Source: Candidatus Colwellbacteria bacterium (lineage in GTDB: Bacteria > Patescibacteriota > Minisyncoccia > UBA6257 > Colwellbacteraceae). From it: a stretch of 24,000 nucleotides of DNA. The notes under the pieces are model-generated. The model was not told where the DNA came from. It made no database searches and saw only the letters and a list, made by a program, of their open reading frames with translations. A program made the translations under genes and the position numbers. The stretch is from assembly GCA_028718505.1 (NCBI GenBank), contig JAQULQ010000007.1, positions 6,353 through 30,352 on the forward strand, given 5' to 3'. This document shows positions 3,643-11,464 of the stretch, piece after piece (positions within the stretch are counted from its first letter, which is position 1; each line of letters begins with the position of its first letter).

Positions 3643-3716
3643 TGCCGGATCGTCTAATGGCAGGACGCCGCGCTCTGGACGCGGTAATCTAGGTTCGAGC
3701 CCTAGTCCGGCAGCCA
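3643..3716 (+). tRNA. tRNA-Gln (anticodon CUG), CCA encoded
   Basis: Acceptor TGCCGGA/TCCGGCA with the U1-A72 pair typical of bacterial tRNA-Gln. Anticodon arm is CCGCG-CTCTGGA-CGCGG with CTG at 3675-3677. T arm is CTAGG-TTCGAGC-CCTAG, followed by discriminator G and CCA. TGTATAAT lies upstream at 3627-3634. Confidence 0.9.
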
Positions 3717-3735
3717 TCTCGTGCTAGCACGAGAT
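3700..3735 (+). repeat. Junction repeat J0: tRNA 3' end + CCATCT hinge + element B
   Basis: AGTCCGGCAGCCATCTCGTGCTAGCACGAGAT. Positions 3716-3735 form a perfect 20-nt palindrome. Confidence 0.7.
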
Positions 3736-3781
3736 CTATAGCCGTCTCGGGCGCACTGAGAGAGGGGTGTAGAATTAACGT

Positions 3782-4447
3782 ATGGACTTCAAAGAAGAAC
3801 TATGGGGAGAGATTCGACCCACCGGCAGATCGGCGGAGGAGTGCTTTGAGGATCTTGGAATATCACTCGAGTTCTTGAAGGGGAAGAAAATCCTTGATAT
3901 CGGATCTGGACTGAACCAGTTTGCCCAAGATCTTAAACAAGAGCACCTTGATCTTACGTCCATCGATATGTTCTATGCGCTAACACCGGAAGAACGGAAA
4001 AAAGTATTCAGTGAGTTGTCTCCGGAGAATTTTGAAACAGTAAAGACAAGTCTTGATAGGATGGCGATTAAGGACAAAGACTCTCATCTCGTTGGAGGAC
4101 GAGCTGAGTCCCTGCCATTTTTAGATGAGACGTTTGACGTCGTGCTCGCAGAGTATTCTATGCCGCACTACGCAGAAAATCGCGAAAGCATGCGAGATTT
4201 CTTTTTTGAAGTTGCTCGCGTTCTAAAGCCAGGAGGAGAGGCTCATATATACCCCATGCGGATTAGGCCGGGACGAAACGTAACAAGAAAGGATGCAGAA
4301 GAGGTCCTTTCAAACTTACGAAATTTGGGATTCTCTGTTGAGGTGTCCGGCAAAGAACTAGGAGATGATCCGCCAGATACAAGGCCACTGCTGTTGGTTC
4401 TTGGAAAACCTCAAATACCCCCAGACCGGGGGGGTCAGCCATCTTGA
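3782..4447 (+). CDS. Class I SAM-dependent methyltransferase
   Basis: ILDIGSGLNQFA (motif I) and VLKPGGEAHIY. TAGAAT lies 6 nt upstream of the ATG. The last 9 codons are encoded by junction element A. Confidence 0.8.
   Translation: MDFKEELWGEIRPTGRSAEECFEDLGISLEFLKGKKILDIGSGLNQFAQDLKQEHLDLTSIDMFYALTPEERKKVFSELSPENFETVKTSLDRMAIKDKDSHLVGGRAESLPFLDETFDVVLAEYSMPHYAENRESMRDFFFEVARVLKPGGEAHIYPMRIRPGRNVTRKDAEEVLSNLRNLGFSVEVSGKELGDDPPDTRPLLLVLGKPQIPPDRGGQPS
4421..4444 (+). repeat. Junction repeat J1: element A + CCATCT hinge (no B)
   Basis: CCAGACCGGGGGGGTCAGCCATCT. Confidence 0.75.
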
Positions 4448-4521
4448 GAAAAATTCGGATGTCCGAAGAGGATTCGAGTCCCGTTGGACACCCATAACAA
4501 ACAGCTTGGTATAATGAAAGT

Positions 4522-5250
4522 ATGAACAAATACTTAGTCGTCGCTTTGGTAGTCATAGTGTTTGGGGCAGTCGGTGTTTTGAGCTACAGATTTTTTCTTT
4601 CTGGTCCCGAAGATACCTGGCTCTGTGAAAATGGAGAATGGATCAAACACGGCAATCCTTCTGCTTCAATGCCGGAGGAGGAGTGCGAAGAAGAGGGAGT
4701 TCGGAATGATGAAGCGGTAAACACTTGGCCTATCTACACTAATGAGTCTTTCGGCATAACATTTGTTTACCCAGAGGGGGCAGAAGTTGTACCTCCTAAC
4801 GGAGAAAGCAACGAGTTTTTTATTCTCTATCCAAAGGATTTAGAGGACCCCGCCATAGTACTGGCAGAGATTAATCCACTAATAATAGGACAAAACATGT
4901 ATGTTTATGATGGGAGCGGCGATGCCAGTGCATTAAGCAAGGCATTCTCGGAAGGGGGCATTAGGGGTGTCGCTAATACGTCGAGAGAGACAAATCTAGG
5001 AGATTACAATCCGAACATCGAGAATGACTTTGTCGGGGCGTTACGGGAATTCAATATTTCGTCCGGAGAAGCATGGGGTTTTGAGGTAGGTGGAGACTTT
5101 ACTTACGGGTTTGTCAGCACTGCCGACGGCACGATAATCGAGACGCGTAGTTACGTAGTTTTTGTGTCTAATGGACAAAGCGTATTCAGAGTGATTGTCC
5201 CGAAGGATAGTCTCGAATCTCTACAAATCCTCGAAAGCCTTGTCGTTTAG
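4522..5250 (+). CDS. Hypothetical secreted/membrane-anchored protein
   Basis: 242 aa with an N-terminal hydrophobic anchor (LVVALVVIVFGAVGVL). TGGTATAAT lies 6 nt upstream of the ATG. No recognisable domain. Confidence 0.6.
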   Translation: MNKYLVVALVVIVFGAVGVLSYRFFLSGPEDTWLCENGEWIKHGNPSASMPEEECEEEGVRNDEAVNTWPIYTNESFGITFVYPEGAEVVPPNGESNEFFILYPKDLEDPAIVLAEINPLIIGQNMYVYDGSGDASALSKAFSEGGIRGVANTSRETNLGDYNPNIENDFVGALREFNISSGEAWGFEVGGDFTYGFVSTADGTIIETRSYVVFVSNGQSVFRVIVPKDSLESLQILESLVV

Positions 5251-5271
5251 TGAGTCTCACTATAGGGGGTA

Positions 5272-5322
5272 CCAGACCGGAGGGGTCAGCCAAGGTTGGA
5301 AGTATCGAGTGACCGAGACGGG
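5272..5322 (+). repeat. Junction repeat J2: A + CCAAGG hinge + B variant
   Basis: CCAGACCGGAGGGGTCAGCCAAGG ... GTGACCGAGACGGG (5309-5322). Confidence 0.75.
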
Positions 5323-5342
5323 TATCAAGGTATACTAAAACT

Positions 5343-5693
5343 ATGAAGTCAGCGCAATCAATCGAAGATTTCTATGTTGGACGTGGTTATCGTGGGGAGA
5401 GACTGAGAAAGGCTCTGGAAGCCGACAGGGAATACCAAGAAGTTCTGAAACGCAAAAGAAGTACATTAACTAAGCGAGTAAATGCGACTAGCGCAGAACA
5501 GCAACGCTATGTCCTCTCAATAGATCCCGATTTCACGATACTGGACCGATGCAAAAAGTTAGAAAAACAAAAGCTATCTTTAAGTGATCAGCAGCTAGTC
5601 CATTTAATTAAATCGCAATTAAAACAGGACTGGAGAAAGCCGCTTAACTCGATGTTAAGAAAGTTGGAGACAAAATACCGTATCGAGAGATAG
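5343..5693 (+). CDS. Hypothetical basic protein (116 aa)
   Basis: Clean ORF with TATACT 6 nt upstream of the ATG. No recognisable motif. Confidence 0.5.
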   Translation: MKSAQSIEDFYVGRGYRGERLRKALEADREYQEVLKRKRSTLTKRVNATSAEQQRYVLSIDPDFTILDRCKKLEKQKLSLSDQQLVHLIKSQLKQDWRKPLNSMLRKLETKYRIER

Positions 5694-5703
5694 TATCGGG
5701 GTA

Positions 5704-5723
5704 TCAGACCGCAGTGGCCATAT
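5704..5723 (+). repeat. Junction repeat J3: degenerate A + CCATAT hinge
   Basis: TCAGACCGCAGTGGCCATAT. A GC-rich module follows immediately. Confidence 0.5.
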
Positions 5724-5730
5724 AGATATT

Positions 5731-5769
5731 TAAAAATGACACGACCCCGCCTCCAATTGGGGTCGTGTC
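5731..5769 (-). terminator. Intrinsic terminator of the minus-strand GC-rich membrane gene
   Basis: GACACGACCCC (5738-5748) pairs with GGGGTCGTGTC (5759-5769). The A-run at 5732-5736 reads as a U-run on the minus strand. Confidence 0.8.
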
Positions 5770-5795
5770 TAATGTACGGCTCCGTGGAACGGGGT

Positions 5796-6182
5796 CTAGT
5801 GAACTAATCGCCCGAGGGTCTTTGCGTCATCTTCCACGATGAGCAGGTAGGGCAGAAGTATGAACGAAGCTCCTGCCAGGGCAGCAACCGCTCTGGCAAG
5901 CCAGATGGCCCACCCCTGCCACCAGTTGGTCCAGAGGCTGATCGCCGCGAGCGTGACTGCTGCCACAACGAGCGTGGCGAGGCAGGCGCCCAGTACTAGG
6001 CGTAGATGACCCGCTCGCCGCCGGGGAAGGGGTGGAAGGAAGGTGGCGGCAAGAATGATGGTCACCACCAGGAATGTGATCGAAGCGATGATGGTCGACC
6101 TCCACTCGTGATCAGCTGGATGGCGGTAGAACGCGGATGGCAACAGGGCGCCGACAAGCACCAGAAAGGTCACGAACAACAT
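5796..6182 (-). CDS. Hypothetical 4-TM membrane protein (GC-rich orphan a)
   Basis: ATG at 6182 preceded by GAGAGGGG. The frame stays open up to 6335, but that stretch is the promoter and leader hairpin. Start is uncertain. Confidence 0.55.
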   Translation of the reverse strand: MLFVTFLVLVGALLPSAFYRHPADHEWRSTIIASITFLVVTIILAATFLPPLPRRRAGHLRLVLGACLATLVVAAVTLAAISLWTNWWQGWAIWLARAVAALAGASFILLPYLLIVEDDAKTLGRLVH

Positions 6183-6238
6183 GACCCCTCTCAGCCTCAG
6201 CCGGTTAGAGCTCGAGTGCTCTCGAGTTTTCGTAAGTT

Positions 6239-6354
6239 CTCCTTTGTCGGGGATATCTAAGCTCAATAAGCTATCAAGCCCAGATATCCCCGACACAGGT
6301 ATATAAATATTCAAAGAACACCCTCTATATGCCATAGGGAGGTCATACAGTCAA
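6239..6354 (-). promoter_or_regulatory. Promoter TTGACT-N17-CATATA plus conserved structured leader, copy 1
   Basis: On the minus strand, the -35 box is at 6354-6349 and the -10 box at 6331-6326. A 14-bp perfect hairpin pairs 6245-6258 with 6282-6295, and AAGGAG is at 6244-6239. Homologous to 10564-10674. Confidence 0.65.
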
Positions 6355-6548
6355 TAATCGAACGACTAGATGATCTTTTATAGATCGTCTCATTTATCCG
6401 ATTTTGATCTCCGCCATAGGCGAGACGAGCCTGGCAGGGACCCTTAGTTTCTGTCACTTTTGTCACCTTTTATACGTGCTCGAAGAGGGTCGTTCTGGTA
6501 TCATAAAGCTAGCTTAAATCGCCAAACAAAGCTTGATCATTATTGGTT

Positions 6549-6589
6549 CCAGCTCGGGGAGGTGAATCATCTAGCGTTAGAGCGAGAAG
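6549..6589 (+). repeat. Junction repeat J3b: degenerate A + CATCT hinge + B variant
   Basis: CCAGCTCGGGGAGGTGAATCATCTAGCGTTAGAGCGAGAAG. Confidence 0.55.
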
Positions 6590-6599
6590 CACCATAAAT

Positions 6600-7139
6600 A
6601 TGGAAAACAAAGTTCTAATAGCCGAAATCTCCAATACTGACTTTGATCCCGAATACAAGATGAGGGATCGGGATAAATATGCTATTAGAAGAGCCGCGCG
6701 CGGGATACTCATTAACGATGGTAAAATTGCGCTTCTAAATGTCACCAAATTTAACTATCACAAATTACCGGGTGGCGGTGTAGAAAAAAACGAAACAATT
6801 GAGAAGGCTTTTAAAAGAGAGGTGGTCGAAGAAACGGGTTGTAAATGCGAAGTATTAGATCAACCGGGAATAGTAATGGAATGGCGCGATCAATGGAGTC
6901 TGCTCCAAATTAGTTATGTTTTTCTAGCTAAAGTTGTGGGTGAGATCGGTAAAAGTAAATTTGAACAGGGAGAAATAGATGAGGGCTTTGAGCTAGGGTG
7001 GGTACCCTTTGAGAAAATAGATGAGATTCTCAAAAATGATAGTCCAACAAATTATGAAGGAAAATTCATAACGATCCGAGATAAAGGTATTTACGAATTC
7101 TATAAAGAAAAACTGCGGGGGAACGTGAAGTTAGCATGA
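6600..7139 (+). CDS. NUDIX hydrolase
   Basis: GGGVEKNETIEKAFKREVVEETG matches the Nudix box Gx5Ex7REUxEExGU. The ATG at 6600 is preferred because the ORF-track start at 6543 lies inside the junction repeat. Confidence 0.85.
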   Translation: MENKVLIAEISNTDFDPEYKMRDRDKYAIRRAARGILINDGKIALLNVTKFNYHKLPGGGVEKNETIEKAFKREVVEETGCKCEVLDQPGIVMEWRDQWSLLQISYVFLAKVVGEIGKSKFEQGEIDEGFELGWVPFEKIDEILKNDSPTNYEGKFITIRDKGIYEFYKEKLRGNVKLA

Positions 7140-7140
7140 T

Positions 7141-7197
7141 ACCGGACCGGAGGGGTCAGCACTCCGACTCGCATTGCTCGCTCAGTGCAAGCCAAGT
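7141..7197 (+). repeat. Junction repeat J4: A + 30-nt insert + CCAAGT hinge
   Basis: ACCGGACCGGAGGGGTCAGCACTCCGAC...GTGCAAGCCAAGT. The insert is homologous to the one in J5. Confidence 0.75.
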
Positions 7198-7206
7198 AGG
7201 GCAACT

Positions 7207-7998
7207 ATGAACTCGATTCATCAGATTAAGCAAAATAGTATCGCTGAATTTGGATCTGTTGCCACACAAAGTCAGTATAAGGAAATTGCCGAGGCGGGGC
7301 TTTGGGAAAGCGAGACAATGCTGATCGAAAAGTACTTCGCGCCAGAGATAAGTGTACTTGATGTGGGTTGTGGTTCGGGAAGAACGACTATACCGCTACA
7401 CCAAGCTGGGTATAGTGTTATCGGAGTTGATATAACTCCCGAGATGATTAATACAGCGCGAAGTGTAGCTAAGTCCAAAAATCTTGAAATAGACTATCTG
7501 GTCGGCGACGCCACACAGCTAGAGTTCGATGATAACACCTTCGAGGGAGCGATTTTCGCAAATAACGGGTGGTCCCAAATTCCAGGGAAAGACAATCGTC
7601 AGAAAACCTTAAATGAGATCTACCGAATTTTAAAGCCAGGCGGTATCTTTATATTTACCGCACACAAAAGATATATATCATTAAACAACTTTTTATCCTG
7701 GTCAGTAGAATGGATAAAGTATCACTTACTAGTTGGCCTTGGTATAAAAATGAAAGGGATTGATTACGGAGATATATTTTTTAGACGAAAATATGATAAA
7801 ACCCAGAGACAATTTATGCATATGGTAGGTACAGAAGAAGTCGCAGGGCAAGTAAAAAAGGCGGGCTTTACGCTCGTTCTAGAGAGGGGGATGGGAGACA
7901 TCTCTGAATCAGACGCAAAAGCAATGAGGGGATCTTTATCTAAGACGTTCAATTCCTATAAATCACCGGTCTTTTATGTTTGTGAAAAACCGAGTTAA
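7207..7998 (+). CDS. Class I SAM-dependent methyltransferase
   Basis: VLDVGCGSGRTTIPL (motif I), DDNTFEGAIF and ILKPGGIFIF. The ATG at 7207 is preferred over the TTG at 7174, which lies in the repeat. Confidence 0.8.
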   Translation: MNSIHQIKQNSIAEFGSVATQSQYKEIAEAGLWESETMLIEKYFAPEISVLDVGCGSGRTTIPLHQAGYSVIGVDITPEMINTARSVAKSKNLEIDYLVGDATQLEFDDNTFEGAIFANNGWSQIPGKDNRQKTLNEIYRILKPGGIFIFTAHKRYISLNNFLSWSVEWIKYHLLVGLGIKMKGIDYGDIFFRRKYDKTQRQFMHMVGTEEVAGQVKKAGFTLVLERGMGDISESDAKAMRGSLSKTFNSYKSPVFYVCEKPS

Positions 7999-8000
7999 CA

Positions 8001-8067
8001 CCAGACCGGAGAGGTCAGCACTTCGGCAAAGCTCGGTGTAAACCAAGTCGTGCTAGCACGAGACGGG
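8001..8067 (+). repeat. Junction repeat J5: A + insert + CCAAGT hinge + B
   Basis: CCAGACCGGAGAGGTCAGCACTTCGGC...AAACCAAGTCGTGCTAGCACGAGACGGG. Confidence 0.8.
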
Positions 8068-8075
8068 TTATAAAC

Positions 8076-8669
8076 ATGACCGAGAAAGAGATTCTAAATC
8101 TTATACAGGCGGATAAATGGATGATGAGGGTTCTTTTAACCGCATCATCTCTCAATCTTAAAGATTGGGCCGTGGGCGCCGGATTTGTTAGGAATAAAGT
8201 GTGGGATTATTTGTCCGGAAAGACTAGAGAGACAGTTGACACAAATGATATTGATTTAGTTTATTTTGATCCAAATGGGAATAACGAAGAGGCTGACAAA
8301 GAATTATCGAAGGAGATGTTAACTCGGACTGGCCTTGATTGGGAGATTGTGAATCAATGCTATGCACACAAGTGGAACAACGTCCCGCCATACAAATCTA
8401 CAAAAGACGCCATAGCACACTGGCCAGAAACAGTGACCGCTATAGGAGTGACTATTGATAAAAATAACAAGCTTAAACTCATTGCCCCGTATGGGATAGG
8501 GGATTTAGTTCACTTCATTGTCAGGCTAAGTCCAAAATTTGAGGGCGGAAGTGGAGTGCTGCAAGAAAGGGTCCGCAAGAAACAGTGGCTAGAGAAATGG
8601 CCAGGGCTTAAGATAGTCAATGAAGGTGCTAGGCCGGAAGGGCCAGCACCTTCGATAAACTCAGTATAA
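8076..8669 (+). CDS. Nucleotidyltransferase family protein (DUF925/NTP_transf_6-like)
   Basis: WAVGAGFVRNKVWDYL...DIDLVYFD is a typical N-terminal nucleotidyltransferase-fold signature of this family. Confidence 0.7.
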   Translation: MTEKEILNLIQADKWMMRVLLTASSLNLKDWAVGAGFVRNKVWDYLSGKTRETVDTNDIDLVYFDPNGNNEEADKELSKEMLTRTGLDWEIVNQCYAHKWNNVPPYKSTKDAIAHWPETVTAIGVTIDKNNKLKLIAPYGIGDLVHFIVRLSPKFEGGSGVLQERVRKKQWLEKWPGLKIVNEGARPEGPAPSINSV

Positions 8670-8670
8670 A

Positions 8671-8695
8671 CCATCTAGTGCTAGACCGAGGAGAG
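8671..8695 (+). repeat. Junction repeat J6: CCATCT hinge + B (no A)
   Basis: CCATCTAGTGCTAGACCGAGGAGAG. It contains GACCGAGGAG (8684-8693), which is repeated at 11290-11299. Confidence 0.75.
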
Positions 8696-8705
8696 TATCC
8701 TTACG

Positions 8706-8734
8706 TTGACAGAATATATTAATTGTGTTATAAG
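8706..8734 (+). promoter_or_regulatory. Near-consensus sigma70 promoter TTGACA-N17-TATAAG
   Basis: TTGACA at 8706-8711 and TATAAG at 8729-8734, about 135 nt upstream of the ATG at 8871. Confidence 0.7.
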
Positions 8735-8784
8735 CTGTGCTAGTTCTATTATAATTTCAATCTTTGCGACAAGTAGACAACCTA

Positions 8785-8863
8785 CAGGGTAAGGAAAGTG
8801 TTTATCAAATATTTGGTAGATACTTTCCTTACCTTGTACTCCGATCTGGGGGTAAGGAGAAAG
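8785..8863 (+). promoter_or_regulatory. Structured 5' leader with SD mimic / anti-SD / SD arrangement
   Basis: A 15-bp hairpin pairs CAGGGTAAGGAAAGT (8785-8799) with ACTTTCCTTACCTTG (8822-8836). The real SD region GGTAAGGAGAAAG (8851-8863) nearly duplicates the 5' arm. Confidence 0.55.
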
Positions 8864-8870
8864 AGGCACC

Positions 8871-9419
8871 ATGCCCGATCGTGAGACAGTTGATATCAGC
8901 GGCCTCTCCAAGGCAGCAGTTCTCGCTGTTCTCTGGAACCACTCGGCTCCCGCCGGAATGGGATTCCTCCAAGCGGCTCTCGGACCCAAAGACGGTATGA
9001 CGGAGGAGGCGGCTTGGGAGATCATCAAGGCCAATGTCGATCCGGACTATCCCGGGCCTCGCACCATGCGGGGAAGCAACCTCAGCTTCGAATACCTCTT
9101 CGGTAGGCCTCTGAAGATCGATCTCGTCGAGAACGAGTTCGATCCGTGGGGCTATGACCGGGACAATGGTGGCGACGGCACGGCCCAACGGATCATCAAC
9201 CAACTCCGTGAAACCGGCGAGGTCAATCCGCCGGAGGCACAGGCCGGACACCGCTCGAAGGTCATCCTCAACGCCCACAGGGCGATGGAGATGGTCAACA
9301 CCGTCTCGACTCTCGAGAAGGGCGGCGGCGTTGCCATATTCCACCTCGGTGCAGACGAGCTCGCCGAGCCGTTGGAGAAGGCCATAGACACTGTCGTCGA
9401 CCGTGTCGAGAGCAGCTGA
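8871..9419 (+). CDS. Hypothetical protein (GC-rich orphan b, 182 aa)
   Basis: Strong SD (GGTAAGGAG) with a GC-rich codon pattern. Overlapping minus-strand ORFs are shadows. I cannot assign a family. Notable motif: GRPLKIDL...FDPWGYDRDNGGDG. Confidence 0.65.
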   Translation: MPDRETVDISGLSKAAVLAVLWNHSAPAGMGFLQAALGPKDGMTEEAAWEIIKANVDPDYPGPRTMRGSNLSFEYLFGRPLKIDLVENEFDPWGYDRDNGGDGTAQRIINQLRETGEVNPPEAQAGHRSKVILNAHRAMEMVNTVSTLEKGGGVAIFHLGADELAEPLEKAIDTVVDRVESS

Positions 9420-9466
9420 TTCACTGACGGAACTCCGTCAAAGCGGCTGCGTCTACTTGTCGCATC

Positions 9467-9517
9467 CGCTTCCATAAATGTGTATTTATGCTGATGAGCT
9501 CAAAAGAGCGAAAAGCG
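9467..9517 (+). ncRNA. Hammerhead self-cleaving ribozyme, type III
   Basis: Stem III CGCUU/AAGCG. C17 at 9472. Stem I is 7 bp, CAUAAAU-GUGU-AUUUAUG. Core CUGAUGA at 9491-9497. Stem II is GCUC-AAAA-GAGC. Core GAA at 9510-9512. A15.1-U16.1 pair is present. Confidence 0.8.
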
Positions 9518-9547
9518 TTACTCTTCTATATAAATCATAGATTATTT

Positions 9548-9561
9548 CAGACCAAGGGGGT
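9548..9561 (+). repeat. Junction element A-like
   Basis: CAGACCAAGGGGGT, compared with CAGACCGGAGGGGT. Confidence 0.45.
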
Positions 9562-9572
9562 TTTTAATATCT

Positions 9573-9624
9573 AAAAAGAACGAGGCCCGCACCGGAAGAC
9601 GACACCGGTGCGAAACACTCGTTC
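9573..9624 (-). terminator. Intrinsic terminator of minus-strand operon (orphans c-d)
   Basis: Nested stems GAACGAG/CTCGTTC (9578-9584 with 9618-9624) and GCACCGG/CCGGTGC (9589-9595 with 9605-9611). The A-run at 9573-9577 reads as a U-run on the minus strand. Confidence 0.75.
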
Positions 9625-9646
9625 CTGATGTCGGCCCCAGTGAGGG

Positions 9647-9660
9647 CCATCTCTAGCTGC
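9647..9660 (+). repeat. Junction hinge + B-like
   Basis: CCATCTCTAGCTGC, compared with CCATCTAGTGCTAG. Confidence 0.45.
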
Positions 9661-9680
9661 TGCCCCCGTCGTTCAAGGCG

Positions 9681-10148
9681 TTACGATGATGCCGGAAAGA
9701 AGTGGGCGACGTGACTCTGGGGCACTCGCATAATGACACGCTGACCCTGCTCGAGCTTCAGGTCGGCCTCCGCCACGACTTCCGGGAGTTCGTCGCCGAA
9801 GGCAATGATCTCTGCCCTCTTAGCGTCGTCGGGGTACGAAACGATTACCCACTTGCCTTCATACTCCGGCTCCATGAGCTGTTCCTGGATACGAACCGGT
9901 ATAACCTGGATGACCTTGCCCCTCCCGTGAAGCACGTCTTCGAGCCAGTGAATGATCCTGCGCTGGAAGGACAGGATCGGGAAGACCGCCAGAAGGTTGC
10001 CAAAGACCATAGACAGCCACCACGGGCTGTGGCCGACCACTATCCACGCGATCGCGAAGAACCCGGGGAGGAAGAGGACCACGACGAGAAGGCAGAGGAT
10101 GAGTGTCAGAAGCGCCAGAAGCCTCAGAATATTGAGAAACGTTCTCAT
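9681..10148 (-). CDS. Hypothetical protein, 2 N-terminal TM helices + soluble C-terminal domain (orphan d)
   Basis: 155 aa with AGGAGG 8 nt upstream of the ATG. GC-rich and second in a two-gene operon. Confidence 0.6.
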   Translation of the reverse strand: MRTFLNILRLLALLTLILCLLVVVLFLPGFFAIAWIVVGHSPWWLSMVFGNLLAVFPILSFQRRIIHWLEDVLHGRGKVIQVIPVRIQEQLMEPEYEGKWVIVSYPDDAKRAEIIAFGDELPEVVAEADLKLEQGQRVIMRVPQSHVAHFFPASS

Positions 10149-10210
10149 TTCGAAAACCTCCTACTCGCGAATAGTCCAGAGATAACAGCTTATTGCGGCG
10201 TAGCGGGTGA

Positions 10211-10555
10211 TCAAAGTCCTCTTCTCGCGCGCTTGGAGGCTCTGATCTTTCTGATGAAGGCTCGCATCACTGTCTCAGGGTTGTCGCCCGGCTCGATACG
10301 CAAGACCGTCCCGTTCCAACTGGAGAGAACCGACGCATAAGCTGTTCTCGCTTTGTCCAGCTGGGACCGGACAATTTCACGCAGGAGCTGACCTGCATAG
10401 GGTTGATAGTAGAGGGTGTGCCCATAACCGGCATTGGGAGACTCCAGAATCGCCAGCAAAAGACTAGCGACGTCCTCTGGAATGCCTCCGTGCGCCACGA
10501 GGGCATTGACTTCCCTTTCAGCGTCTCGAACAGCCAATTCGTAGTTGCACGCCAC
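10211..10555 (-). CDS. Hypothetical protein (orphan c, 114 aa)
   Basis: GTG start at 10555, 8 nt after AGGAG. GC-rich and first gene after the conserved leader. Confidence 0.55.
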   Translation of the reverse strand: MACNYELAVRDAEREVNALVAHGGIPEDVASLLLAILESPNAGYGHTLYYQPYAGQLLREIVRSQLDKARTAYASVLSSWNGTVLRIEPGDNPETVMRAFIRKIRASKRARRGL

Positions 10556-10563
10556 GTTTTCTT

Positions 10564-10674
10564 CTCCTATGTCGAGGTGTCTATATCCAACAAGGTGTTG
10601 GCCACAGATACCTCGACACAGATATTAATTTAAAAGAACATTCTCTGTATGCCACGTGAAGACTACATAGTCAA
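10564..10674 (-). promoter_or_regulatory. Promoter TTGACT-N17-CATACA plus conserved structured leader, copy 2
   Basis: On the minus strand, the -35 box is at 10674-10669 and the -10 box at 10651-10646. A long hairpin spans 10570-10618, and AGGAG is at 10568-10564. Homologous to 6239-6354. Confidence 0.65.
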
Positions 10675-10762
10675 TACGTCTGGCGCCTAAAATATGTACG
10701 TACACTGATCTAGGGAGGTAGAGTCTAGTGTTGAAATAAATTTATTAATACTCATAAACGCA

Positions 10763-10792
10763 GGAACCCCACCACCGGAATGGCGGGGTTCC
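10763..10792 (-). terminator. Probable terminator of orphan e
   Basis: GGAACCCC (10763-10770) pairs with GGGGTTCC (10785-10792). The minus strand continues UGCGUUUAUG. Confidence 0.5.
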
Positions 10793-10810
10793 GCAATTCG
10801 GTAGTGGGGT

Positions 10811-11155
10811 CTATTCAGAGATGACGAGATGGAGTTCACCTCTACGGTTAGCGATGCTGAAGAGTGCCGTGAACTTCAGCCCCATCAGTCTCAGTTCGTA
10901 CTGCATGCCGCTTGGGACGTCGACGATAACGCCCTCGACATCCCATTCGGTCCTATCGCTACCAACGCGATGAAGCCCGTCGATGACTGCCTCGATCCAT
11001 CGACCTGACGACAAGATGTTCCTCACGCTCGGATGCTCAAGCGTGAACCTCACTACTGGTCGATAGTGAGGAGTAGCCCCGTGCGTCCCGAGCAAGGAGA
11101 TGCCCATGTCGAGCAGTGATGGACCATCGATGATGAAGATGTCCCGATCGGTCAT
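10811..11155 (-). CDS. Hypothetical protein (orphan e, 114 aa)
   Basis: ATG at 11155 preceded by TTAGGAGGTCGG. The ORF-track start at 11260 runs through the leader hairpins and promoter. Confidence 0.55.
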   Translation of the reverse strand: MTDRDIFIIDGPSLLDMGISLLGTHGATPHYRPVVRFTLEHPSVRNILSSGRWIEAVIDGLHRVGSDRTEWDVEGVIVDVPSGMQYELRLMGLKFTALFSIANRRGELHLVISE

Positions 11156-11286
11156 CCGACCTCCTAAGGTGCAAGCCCTTATTGAGCAAGAGCAACTCCT
11201 TCCTGAGATTTCTCCCAGAGACCTGATTATCCAATCAGGAATTGTAAGAAAAAAGTACAACTATTATTGACGTACGTCAAATAACC

Positions 11287-11301
11287 CCTGACCGAGGAGC
11301 C
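11287..11301 (+). repeat. Junction element (CCTGACCGAGGAGCC)
   Basis: Contains GACCGAGGAG (11290-11299), identical to 8684-8693. CCTGACCGA recurs at 16660 and 22000. Confidence 0.6.
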
Positions 11302-11464
11302 TAATTCCGCTACATTGTCGTGGCGGACAGACAAAGAAAAGAGCGAAAGAAAGAATGGCGGGGACAGATGGGCGAGAGAATGACTTGAATTCTAATTTTG
11401 GTTAGAATAATCGCTATAGCGTTGAGCTTAGCTCTGTAAGTTAAGCTGCGTGTATACGTATTAG

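Follow-up and report, generated by a model that had tools for sequence, protein, structure and literature searches.

The window studied here is the whole stretch of 24,000 nucleotides analysed from a chromosome of Candidatus Colwellbacteria (Patescibacteria), taken from a metagenome-assembled genome. It contains a GC-rich block of 2.6 kb (8694-11289) with a perfect 10-bp direct repeat at its two ends. We conclude that this block is probably made of three independent, adjacent accessory units, modules A, B and C, rather than of one inserted element, and that the repeat reflects an overlap of two motifs. The evidence was observed directly and concerns the composition of the block, its modularity, the motif membership of both repeat copies, RNA folds and covariation. 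Module A occurs in other genomes without modules B and C, and module C without modules A and B, indicating that the block is not one unit. Each module would be moron-like, with a foreign open reading frame (ORF) rich in G and C at third codon positions (GC3) between its own AT-rich promoter and its own 3′-end signal. Each would be expressed by itself, and the three would have entered separately, by whatever route. The modules are as follows:

8705..9545 (+): module A, from promoter to hammerhead ribozyme
9572..10680 (-): module B
10742..11281 (-): module C

Composition and modularity of the block

The GC content of the block is 0.53, and that of its flanks is 0.46-0.47. Local values are 0.633 at 9001-9060, 0.617 at 10261-10320 and 0.317 at 8221-8280, as had been quoted correctly in an earlier note on this DNA, which called the block compositionally foreign. 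The tetranucleotide comparison proposed there was also run, and the block was the strongest outlier among 2.6-kb segments of the window: its L1 distance to the remaining window was 0.307, above all 82 other segments (maximum 0.233). The GC3 was 0.74 for ORF1, 0.76 for ORF2, 0.61 for ORF3 and 0.67 for ORF4, compared with 0.36-0.55 for host genes. Given this high GC3 and the host-like GC of the intergenic parts of the block (0.37-0.50), the foreign composition is restricted to the ORFs.

The modules were compared with fetched loci and assemblies, which are given here as L-numbers (303 in all). By blastn, 8705-9545 was 74% identical to L001, L002 and L003, from the -35 box to just 3′ of the hammerhead and no further. 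In these genomes, module A is bordered by an unrelated operon of 82-amino acid (aa) and 110-aa proteins and, at its other end, by an MFS gene or a serine-recombinase island, and remoter module A-type units in L004, L216 and L286 stand in other contexts again. For ORF4 only three relatives were found, on L085-L088, with 65-78% aa identity, and neither module A nor module B is present there. The module C homology takes in the 5′ untranslated region (5′UTR) and the promoter and goes some 20 nt past the right repeat copy, into a junction element to which module C is always joined there. In L086, a host gene is 78% identical in aa to window 20697-21377, but module C lies at another locus. Modules A and C are thus found apart in other genomes, an outcome which the earlier note had named as refuting its own insertion reading. 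Its proposal that the block was built from smaller modules is supported by the same data.

Four orphan genes in three self-contained units, together with a hammerhead, had also been described before, and the folds, the ORFs and an Rfam match all agree with this. No match was found for ORF1-ORF4 in Pfam, PHROG, PADLOC or NCBIfam. No relative of ORF2 was found among 5.8 billion proteins, and ORF3 had three weak matches. Substitutions by codon position, with the third position given first, were 76 versus 33 and 21 for ORF1 and 33 versus 18 and 12 for ORF4. This concentration at third codon positions indicates that ORF1 and ORF4 are real genes.

The 10-bp repeat and the origin of the block

The repeat GACCGAGGAG was found at 8684-8693 and 11290-11299, exactly where it had been reported, and no third exact copy is present in the window. 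It is exactly 10 bp long, the neighbouring bases on either side differing between the copies. Such a repeat is not beyond chance. The window has 402 exact direct 10-mer pairs, 73 of them at a spacing of 1.5-4 kb. Markov-simulated copies of the two boundary intergenic zones had a 10-mer in common in 5.9% of trials, and 10 of the 231 real intergenic pairs of the window have one.

Both copies lie within motifs that recur elsewhere. The left copy falls in GTGCTAGACCGAG, a second instance of which is found at 14584-14596, upstream of the gene at 14615, with no insertion adjoining. The right copy falls in CCCTGACCGA, which is present again at 16659, in the upstream region of CsoR, also without insertion. 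The two motifs extend in opposite directions. From the motif membership of both copies it follows that the 10-mer is the 7-nt core GACCGAG of two motif families plus three more matches. The sequences at the two boundaries and the tRNA gene mentioned below are:

3643-3716: tRNA-Gln
8629..8693 (+): junction paralogue, with a motif A variant (8629-8649), a hinge and a degenerate palindromic motif B (8671-8693)
11282..11316 (+): 5′ part of the junction element, CTGACC-17-TACATT, which holds the right 10-mer; found by nhmmer profile match and alignments

The left junction 8629-8693 aligns with a second junction at 8001-8065, consisting of motif A (CCAGACCGGRGGGGTCAGC), hinge and motif B, and with the tRNA-Gln trailer 3714-3734, with 14584-14600 and with L002 2266-2297. 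Motif B is palindromic, TCGTGCTAGCACGAG, also written TCTCGTGCTAGCACGAGA; it stands directly 3′ of the tRNA-Gln CCA end at 3717 and again at 8043. From these alignments, the left repeat copy is read as a decayed motif B. The right copy is read as belonging to a conserved promoter-like element, AACCCCTGACCGAGnnCCTAATT-TATACT, of which it forms the -35/spacer part; this element faces the sigma-factor operon.

This second element is about 110 nt long in its full form. It is composed of a CTGACC box, a 17-nt spacer, TATACT and a stretch of about 65 nt with motif A at its end, and full copies read AACCCCTGACCGAG(nn)CCCTAATTCnGnTATACTAAAAG ... GGGGGTACCAGACCGGAGGGGTCAGCC. At the right end of the block, the hexamers are CTGACC-17-TACATT, and the sigma-factor gene lies about 150 nt downstream of them. 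The nhmmer profile gave 4 matches in L001/L002, 2 or 3 each in L085-L087 and 1 in L088. In the window it gave partial copies at 5245-5297 and 11282-11316, and a further partial copy is found at 16656-16685. In L001 (4 copies), L002, L085-L087 and L088, the element is conserved without a break over the right repeat copy. It was also seen between GC-rich units in several Patescibacteria assemblies (L001 9667, 17926, 19503 and 20242; L085 4326-4444 and 5481-5599; L088 1-118). No Rfam family was found for it. Two other identities were considered and rejected: as a structured non-coding RNA, its RNAalifold consensus was weak (-9 kcal/mol) and had no covariation support, and as a phage-borne sequence, it had no true copies in IMG/VR.

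If the block had entered as a whole, the empty site would read GTGCTAGACCGAGGAGCCTAATTCC contiguously. The corresponding hybrid, GTGCTAGACCGAGGAGCCTAATT, whether exact or degenerate, was absent from the 303 fetched loci and from IMG/VR; relatives instead keep AACCCCT+GACCGAG..CCTAATT, contiguous across the right copy. The earlier note had read the repeat as a target-site duplication or a pair of att-type sites. This reading is not supported, as both copies belong to motifs that recur elsewhere without insertions (14584, 16656, L001, L002, L085 and L088). Where a genome has recurrent intergenic motifs, a perfect but short repeat flanking a compositional island speaks only weakly for insertion.

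The alternative that survives best, though an unlikely one, is site-specific accretion. The junction motifs would be att-like sequences derived from the tRNA-Gln 3′ end and trailer, and a recombinase encoded elsewhere would insert units serially at them; the 10-bp repeat would then be the recombination core for the whole block or for single modules. A row of accessory genes, cassette-like, variable and mostly single genes, does begin at the tRNA-Gln and spans 3717-8700. In it, motif A is found 0-22 nt 3′ of the stop codons at 4421, 5272, 5703, 7142 and 8001, and the further copy at 8629-8649 lies within the 3′ end of the NTP_transf_6 gene. The sequence after the tRNA-Gln (3714-3752) recurs at 8043, at 8671 and 3′ of the element in L085. 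Moreover, the tRNA-Gln trailer of L085 recurs 3′ of motif A in two places (window 5286 and L002 12886), so that motif A plus CAGCCA stands where the tRNA 3′ end would. L002 9400-12900 is a regular array in which terminator, GC-rich ORF, promoter and element follow each other three times, and CTAGACCCGAGAGG and CTAGCTCGAGGAGG stand on the two sides of the L002 block holding module A. An island of more than 9.7 kb, with a large serine recombinase and with a copy of the element at its end, makes the difference between L001 and L002.

On the other hand, the sole natural breakpoint seen, that between L001 and L002, is at CAGCAACCAG, the other end of the element, and not at GACCGAG. Domain searches found no integrase, transposase, resolvase or recombinase domain in any ORF of the window. 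The element also occurs without a GC-rich neighbour (window 16656, L001 9667), no such motifs adjoin the module A-type units of L004, and the element's absence from IMG/VR counts against accretion as well. The two genomes compared at this island are near-identical (L001 1-9780 versus L002 1-2320). The island also has DNA methylases, a KAP NTPase and an HNH protein, and a degenerate remnant of a tRNA-Gln 3′ end is found in L002 at the position of the breakpoint.

A broader form of the accretion idea seems slightly less likely still. Some Patescibacteria chromosomes might have a recombinase-poor, tRNA-Gln-anchored accretion system, in which single-gene units are stacked or swapped at the ~110-nt element and its short derivatives, with the GACCGAG and CAGCCA boxes as exchange points. 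If so, accretion would work like an integron without IntI or attC, with unrelated GC-rich ORFs set, ready for expression, in common sockets of promoter, 5′ hairpin and terminator.

That the block is a non-autonomous transposon with the 10-bp repeat as its target-site duplication is very improbable and is already contradicted by the present data. The perfect repeat does lie exactly at the compositional boundaries, but neither 8694 nor 11289 has a terminal inverted repeat (an inverted-repeat search of 8600-11400 agreed with the earlier note on this point), the window has no transposase, the whole block was never seen elsewhere, its modules occurring separately, the module C homology to L085/L088 passes about 20 nt beyond the right repeat, and both copies lie in longer recurrent motifs. 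An assembly chimera, in which GC-rich contigs of another organism were joined at a short common repeat, would suit a metagenome-assembled source with a sharp shift in composition and a short repeat at both boundaries. However, a separate assembly from Logan (L089, SRR22315506), made independently, reproduces 8854-10166 with 100% identity, including the A/B junction, and the right junction (module C promoter plus element) is contiguous in the four assemblies L085-L088. Together these two findings make a chimera very unlikely. The presence of motif B upstream of module A in L002 as well, and the host-like composition of the intergenic parts of the block, also argue against it.

Some points weigh against the block being three separately acquired units. 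GC-rich units adjoin GACCGAG motifs repeatedly in the window, L002 and L085, and these motifs may therefore still have a role in recombination. A sigma-factor scan gave relatives of at most 55% aa identity, the closest genomes found having about 54% in the sigma factor; such relatives are too distant for a practicable comparison of the junctions, leaving no empty site to examine. Exact-sequence look-up gave no other contig with the NTP_transf_6, the sigma factor (two start codons) or the ORF1 of the source. The promoters of the units were not listed by a consensus promoter scan and were assigned by inspection and conservation, their promoter-like hexamers being conserved in homologues. Hammerhead cleavage and the end pairing of module A, described below, are predictions. 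Finally, the word moron is used as an analogy, because the region is chromosomal and not a phage genome.

Architecture of the units and their setting

Module A is a plus-strand unit in which the following features were assigned:

TTGACA(8706)-17-TATAAG (+): promoter-like hexamers, with a second TATAAT at 8750-8755; by inspection
8765-8778 (+): 5′ arm of the end pairing
8783-8838 (+): 5′UTR hairpin with 28-nt arms (-44 kcal/mol, z -6)
8871-9419 (+): ORF1
9451-9464 (+): 3′ arm of the end pairing
9465-9519 (+): type III hammerhead, with predicted cleavage after C9472

No U-tract terminator is present after ORF1, and the hammerhead stands there instead. The segment 9465-9519 matched RF00008/Hammerhead_3 with 33.2 bits (E 3.7e-4), below the gathering score of 48.5, and the sister hammerhead of L004 scored 39.3 bits. 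In the RF00008 alignment, all core positions are present (CUGANGA...GAAA, A15.1-U16.1 and H17), with three helices and an open stem III. Across six sequences, helices I-III are 86-100% paired, with compensatory changes.

Directly upstream of the ribozyme, 9451-9464 is fully complementary to TGCGACAAGTAGAC (8765-8778), giving a 14-bp panhandle that ends 8 nt before the predicted cleavage site. The minimum free energy fold and the centroid fold of 8763-9472 are both closed by it. The pairing is kept through compensatory changes in L004 (GACAAACAGAGA/TCTCTGTTTGTC), in L216 (about 24 of 27 positions) and in L286, where it includes a G-U pair. The panhandle and the three ribozyme helices all covary: together, 92% of their cells in six aligned units are paired, and 13 pairs are changed on both sides. 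None of 500 shuffles reached this, and slid controls gave 30-43%. These folds suggest a route to the mRNA ends. Transcription of module A would start near 8741-8765, and the hammerhead would cut itself off after C9472, making the mRNA 3′ end. In the released ORF1 mRNA, the last nucleotides would be paired with the first. Such end pairing would substitute for a terminator hairpin and protect both ends of the mRNA.

The identical stem II/loop variant was found in more than 120 stretches of IMG/VR, mostly with a local hairpin before it, and the panhandle looks like that local hairpin stretched around the ORF. L004 has, at 1072-1600, a second promoter-to-hammerhead unit with its own end pairing (GACAAACAGAGA/TCTCTGTTTGTC) and no convincing ORF, which is a candidate hammerhead-processed non-coding RNA. 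A further hammerhead candidate, with a CUGAAGA core and an 8-bp stem I, was seen at about 2650-2730 of L069, a different Colwellbacteria genome.

The 5′UTR of module A (8783-8870) has three mutually complementary segments, GGGTAAGGAAAG, CTTTCCTTACC and GGGTAAGGAGAAAG, the last of which includes the ribosome-binding site; their complementarity suggests a possible switch. The 5′UTRs of sister units match the Rfam family RAGATH-10 (RF03147), at 43.3 bits in L286 (2419-2495), above the gathering score of 41.2, and at 32.4 bits in L004 (208-284). The 5′UTR of module A in the window gave no match to the RAGATH-10 covariance model at E<=5. RAGATH-10 is one of a group of motifs that lie close to genes associated with self-cleaving ribozymes (PMC5737381).

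ORF1 matches a hypothetical protein of a Candidatus Colwellbacteria metagenome-assembled genome with 100% identity. It has at least 121 homologues, five of them in viral contigs, and the family is often GC-richer than its surroundings. The N-terminal part of about 115 aa also occurs alone and in gp28 of Streptomyces phage Gilgamesh. The AlphaFold model of ORF1 is confident (pLDDT, the predicted local distance difference test score, of 90); no fold match to it was found in PDB, and BFVD gave one unnamed match.

Modules B and C would be ordinary promoter-to-intrinsic-terminator units on the minus strand. Their features and those of the short sequences beside module B are:

9546..9571 (no strand): remnant like the 3′ end of a junction element, CAGACCAAGGGGGT; a weak match, by eye, to motif A and the L002 array
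9572-9626 (-): module B intrinsic terminator, -34.5 kcal/mol, then a U-run
9681-10148 (-): ORF2, with a membrane N-terminus
10211-10555 (-): ORF3
10567-10621 (-): module B 5′UTR hairpin (-37 kcal/mol, z -7.3)
10646-10674 (-): module B promoter-like TTGACT-17-CATACA; by inspection
10681..10741 (no strand): spacer between modules B and C
10757-10811 (-): module C terminator (-33.9 kcal/mol, z -5.7)
10811-11155 (-): ORF4, with its true start ATG at 11155 and a structured 5′UTR
11252-11280 (-): module C promoter-like TTGACG-17-TACTTT; by inspection

The terminator region of module B is 73% identical to L002 9421-9560. Within the spacer, 10709-10735 (CTAGGGAGGTAGAGTCTAGTG) resembles, by eye and weakly, the ribosome-binding site and GTG start of a GC-rich unit at L085 5630-5665, and it may be what is left of a unit once present between modules B and C. 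The structure model of ORF4 was unusable (pLDDT 39).

Unrelated GC-rich ORFs were also seen within homologous promoters, 5′ hairpins and terminators (6290-6350 versus 10600-10690; 5735-5775 versus L085 6216-6255; 10748-10758 versus L002 3381-3391). It looks as if different genes had been placed in one expression socket. Other lone GC-rich units of the window lie at 5796-6335 (-), 15296-15703 (+) and 23204 to the end (-), with GC3 of 0.67-0.71.

By gene content, the window is ordinary chromosome. It codes for RNase H, a PD-(D/E)XK nuclease, a CDP-alcohol phosphatidyltransferase, two methyltransferases, a NUDIX protein and NTP_transf_6, for a sigma factor with a DUF5667 partner, and for a CsoR/copper-ATPase operon. 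One further RNA gene was annotated, which has large insertions compared with the Rfam consensus:

1184-1598: RNase P RNA, bacterial type A (114.8 bits)

Comparison with known systems

The locus combines known kinds, namely moron-like units and a hammerhead-associated gene unit. Like the morons defined for temperate phages (PMC4378225), the units consist of one ORF, or of an operon of two genes, each unit with its own promoter and terminator and with a composition unlike that of its neighbours. They have no recognisable recombinase target and carry accessory or orphan genes, and the ORF1 family is also found in phage contigs. Each module has its own promoter, and modules B and C have terminators of about -34 kcal/mol, the hammerhead taking this place in module A. 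Unlike morons, which lie between genes that are adjacent in related phage genomes, these units are located in a bacterial chromosome (RNase P RNA, tRNA, pgsA, sigma factor) and not in a prophage. Moreover, several units have homologous promoters, 5′ hairpins and terminators around unrelated ORFs, and one has a ribozyme.

Bacterial hammerheads have been described beside single genes in prophage-like contexts, with function unknown (PMC3088659). Module A resembles such hammerhead gene units (Perreault et al. 2011, PMC3088659; RAGATH motifs, Weinberg et al. 2017, PMC5737381) in having a type III hammerhead with a canonical core directly 3′ of a single hypothetical gene. It differs from them in that a long-range duplex, formed with the 5′ end of the mRNA and enclosing the whole ORF, stands in place of the local hairpin of the phage units, and in that the host belongs to Patescibacteria. 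A full-text literature search gave no paper linking hammerheads to Patescibacteria.

Two systems of site-specific integration were also compared. Similar to integron cassette arrays, the row of units has mostly single-gene accessory units, a short motif just after stop codons and a fixed anchor. In contrast to them, no IntI is present, the junction motifs lack the attC architecture of an imperfect inverted repeat with RYYYAAC/GTTRRRY ends, and the GC-rich units, which are found on both strands, each come with a promoter. Like tandem tRNA islands, the array starts from a tRNA-Gln, the trailer recurs at junctions, and a related genome has a serine-recombinase island there. Unlike in tRNA islands, the repeated pieces match the tRNA only in CAGCCA plus trailer, there is no integrase, and the units are far smaller (0.5-1.1 kb). 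With regard to the block as an att-flanked element, an identical 10-bp core is found at both its ends, no integrase or recombinase is encoded within its four ORFs, and the predicted attB was absent from the 303 loci and IMG/VR, among which there is no close relative.

What makes the locus interesting is mainly module A, together with the sockets that unrelated ORFs have in common. The locus indicates that reduced Patescibacteria genomes take up and keep orphan, phage-linked genes as small autonomous expression units, and that unrelated ORFs in such units have common regulatory ends. At least one family would shape its mRNA by a hammerhead combined with pairing of the 5′ and 3′ ends, in place of a terminator. 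This would give a concrete, testable role to the hammerheads of bacteria and phages, the function of which has been unclear since 2011.

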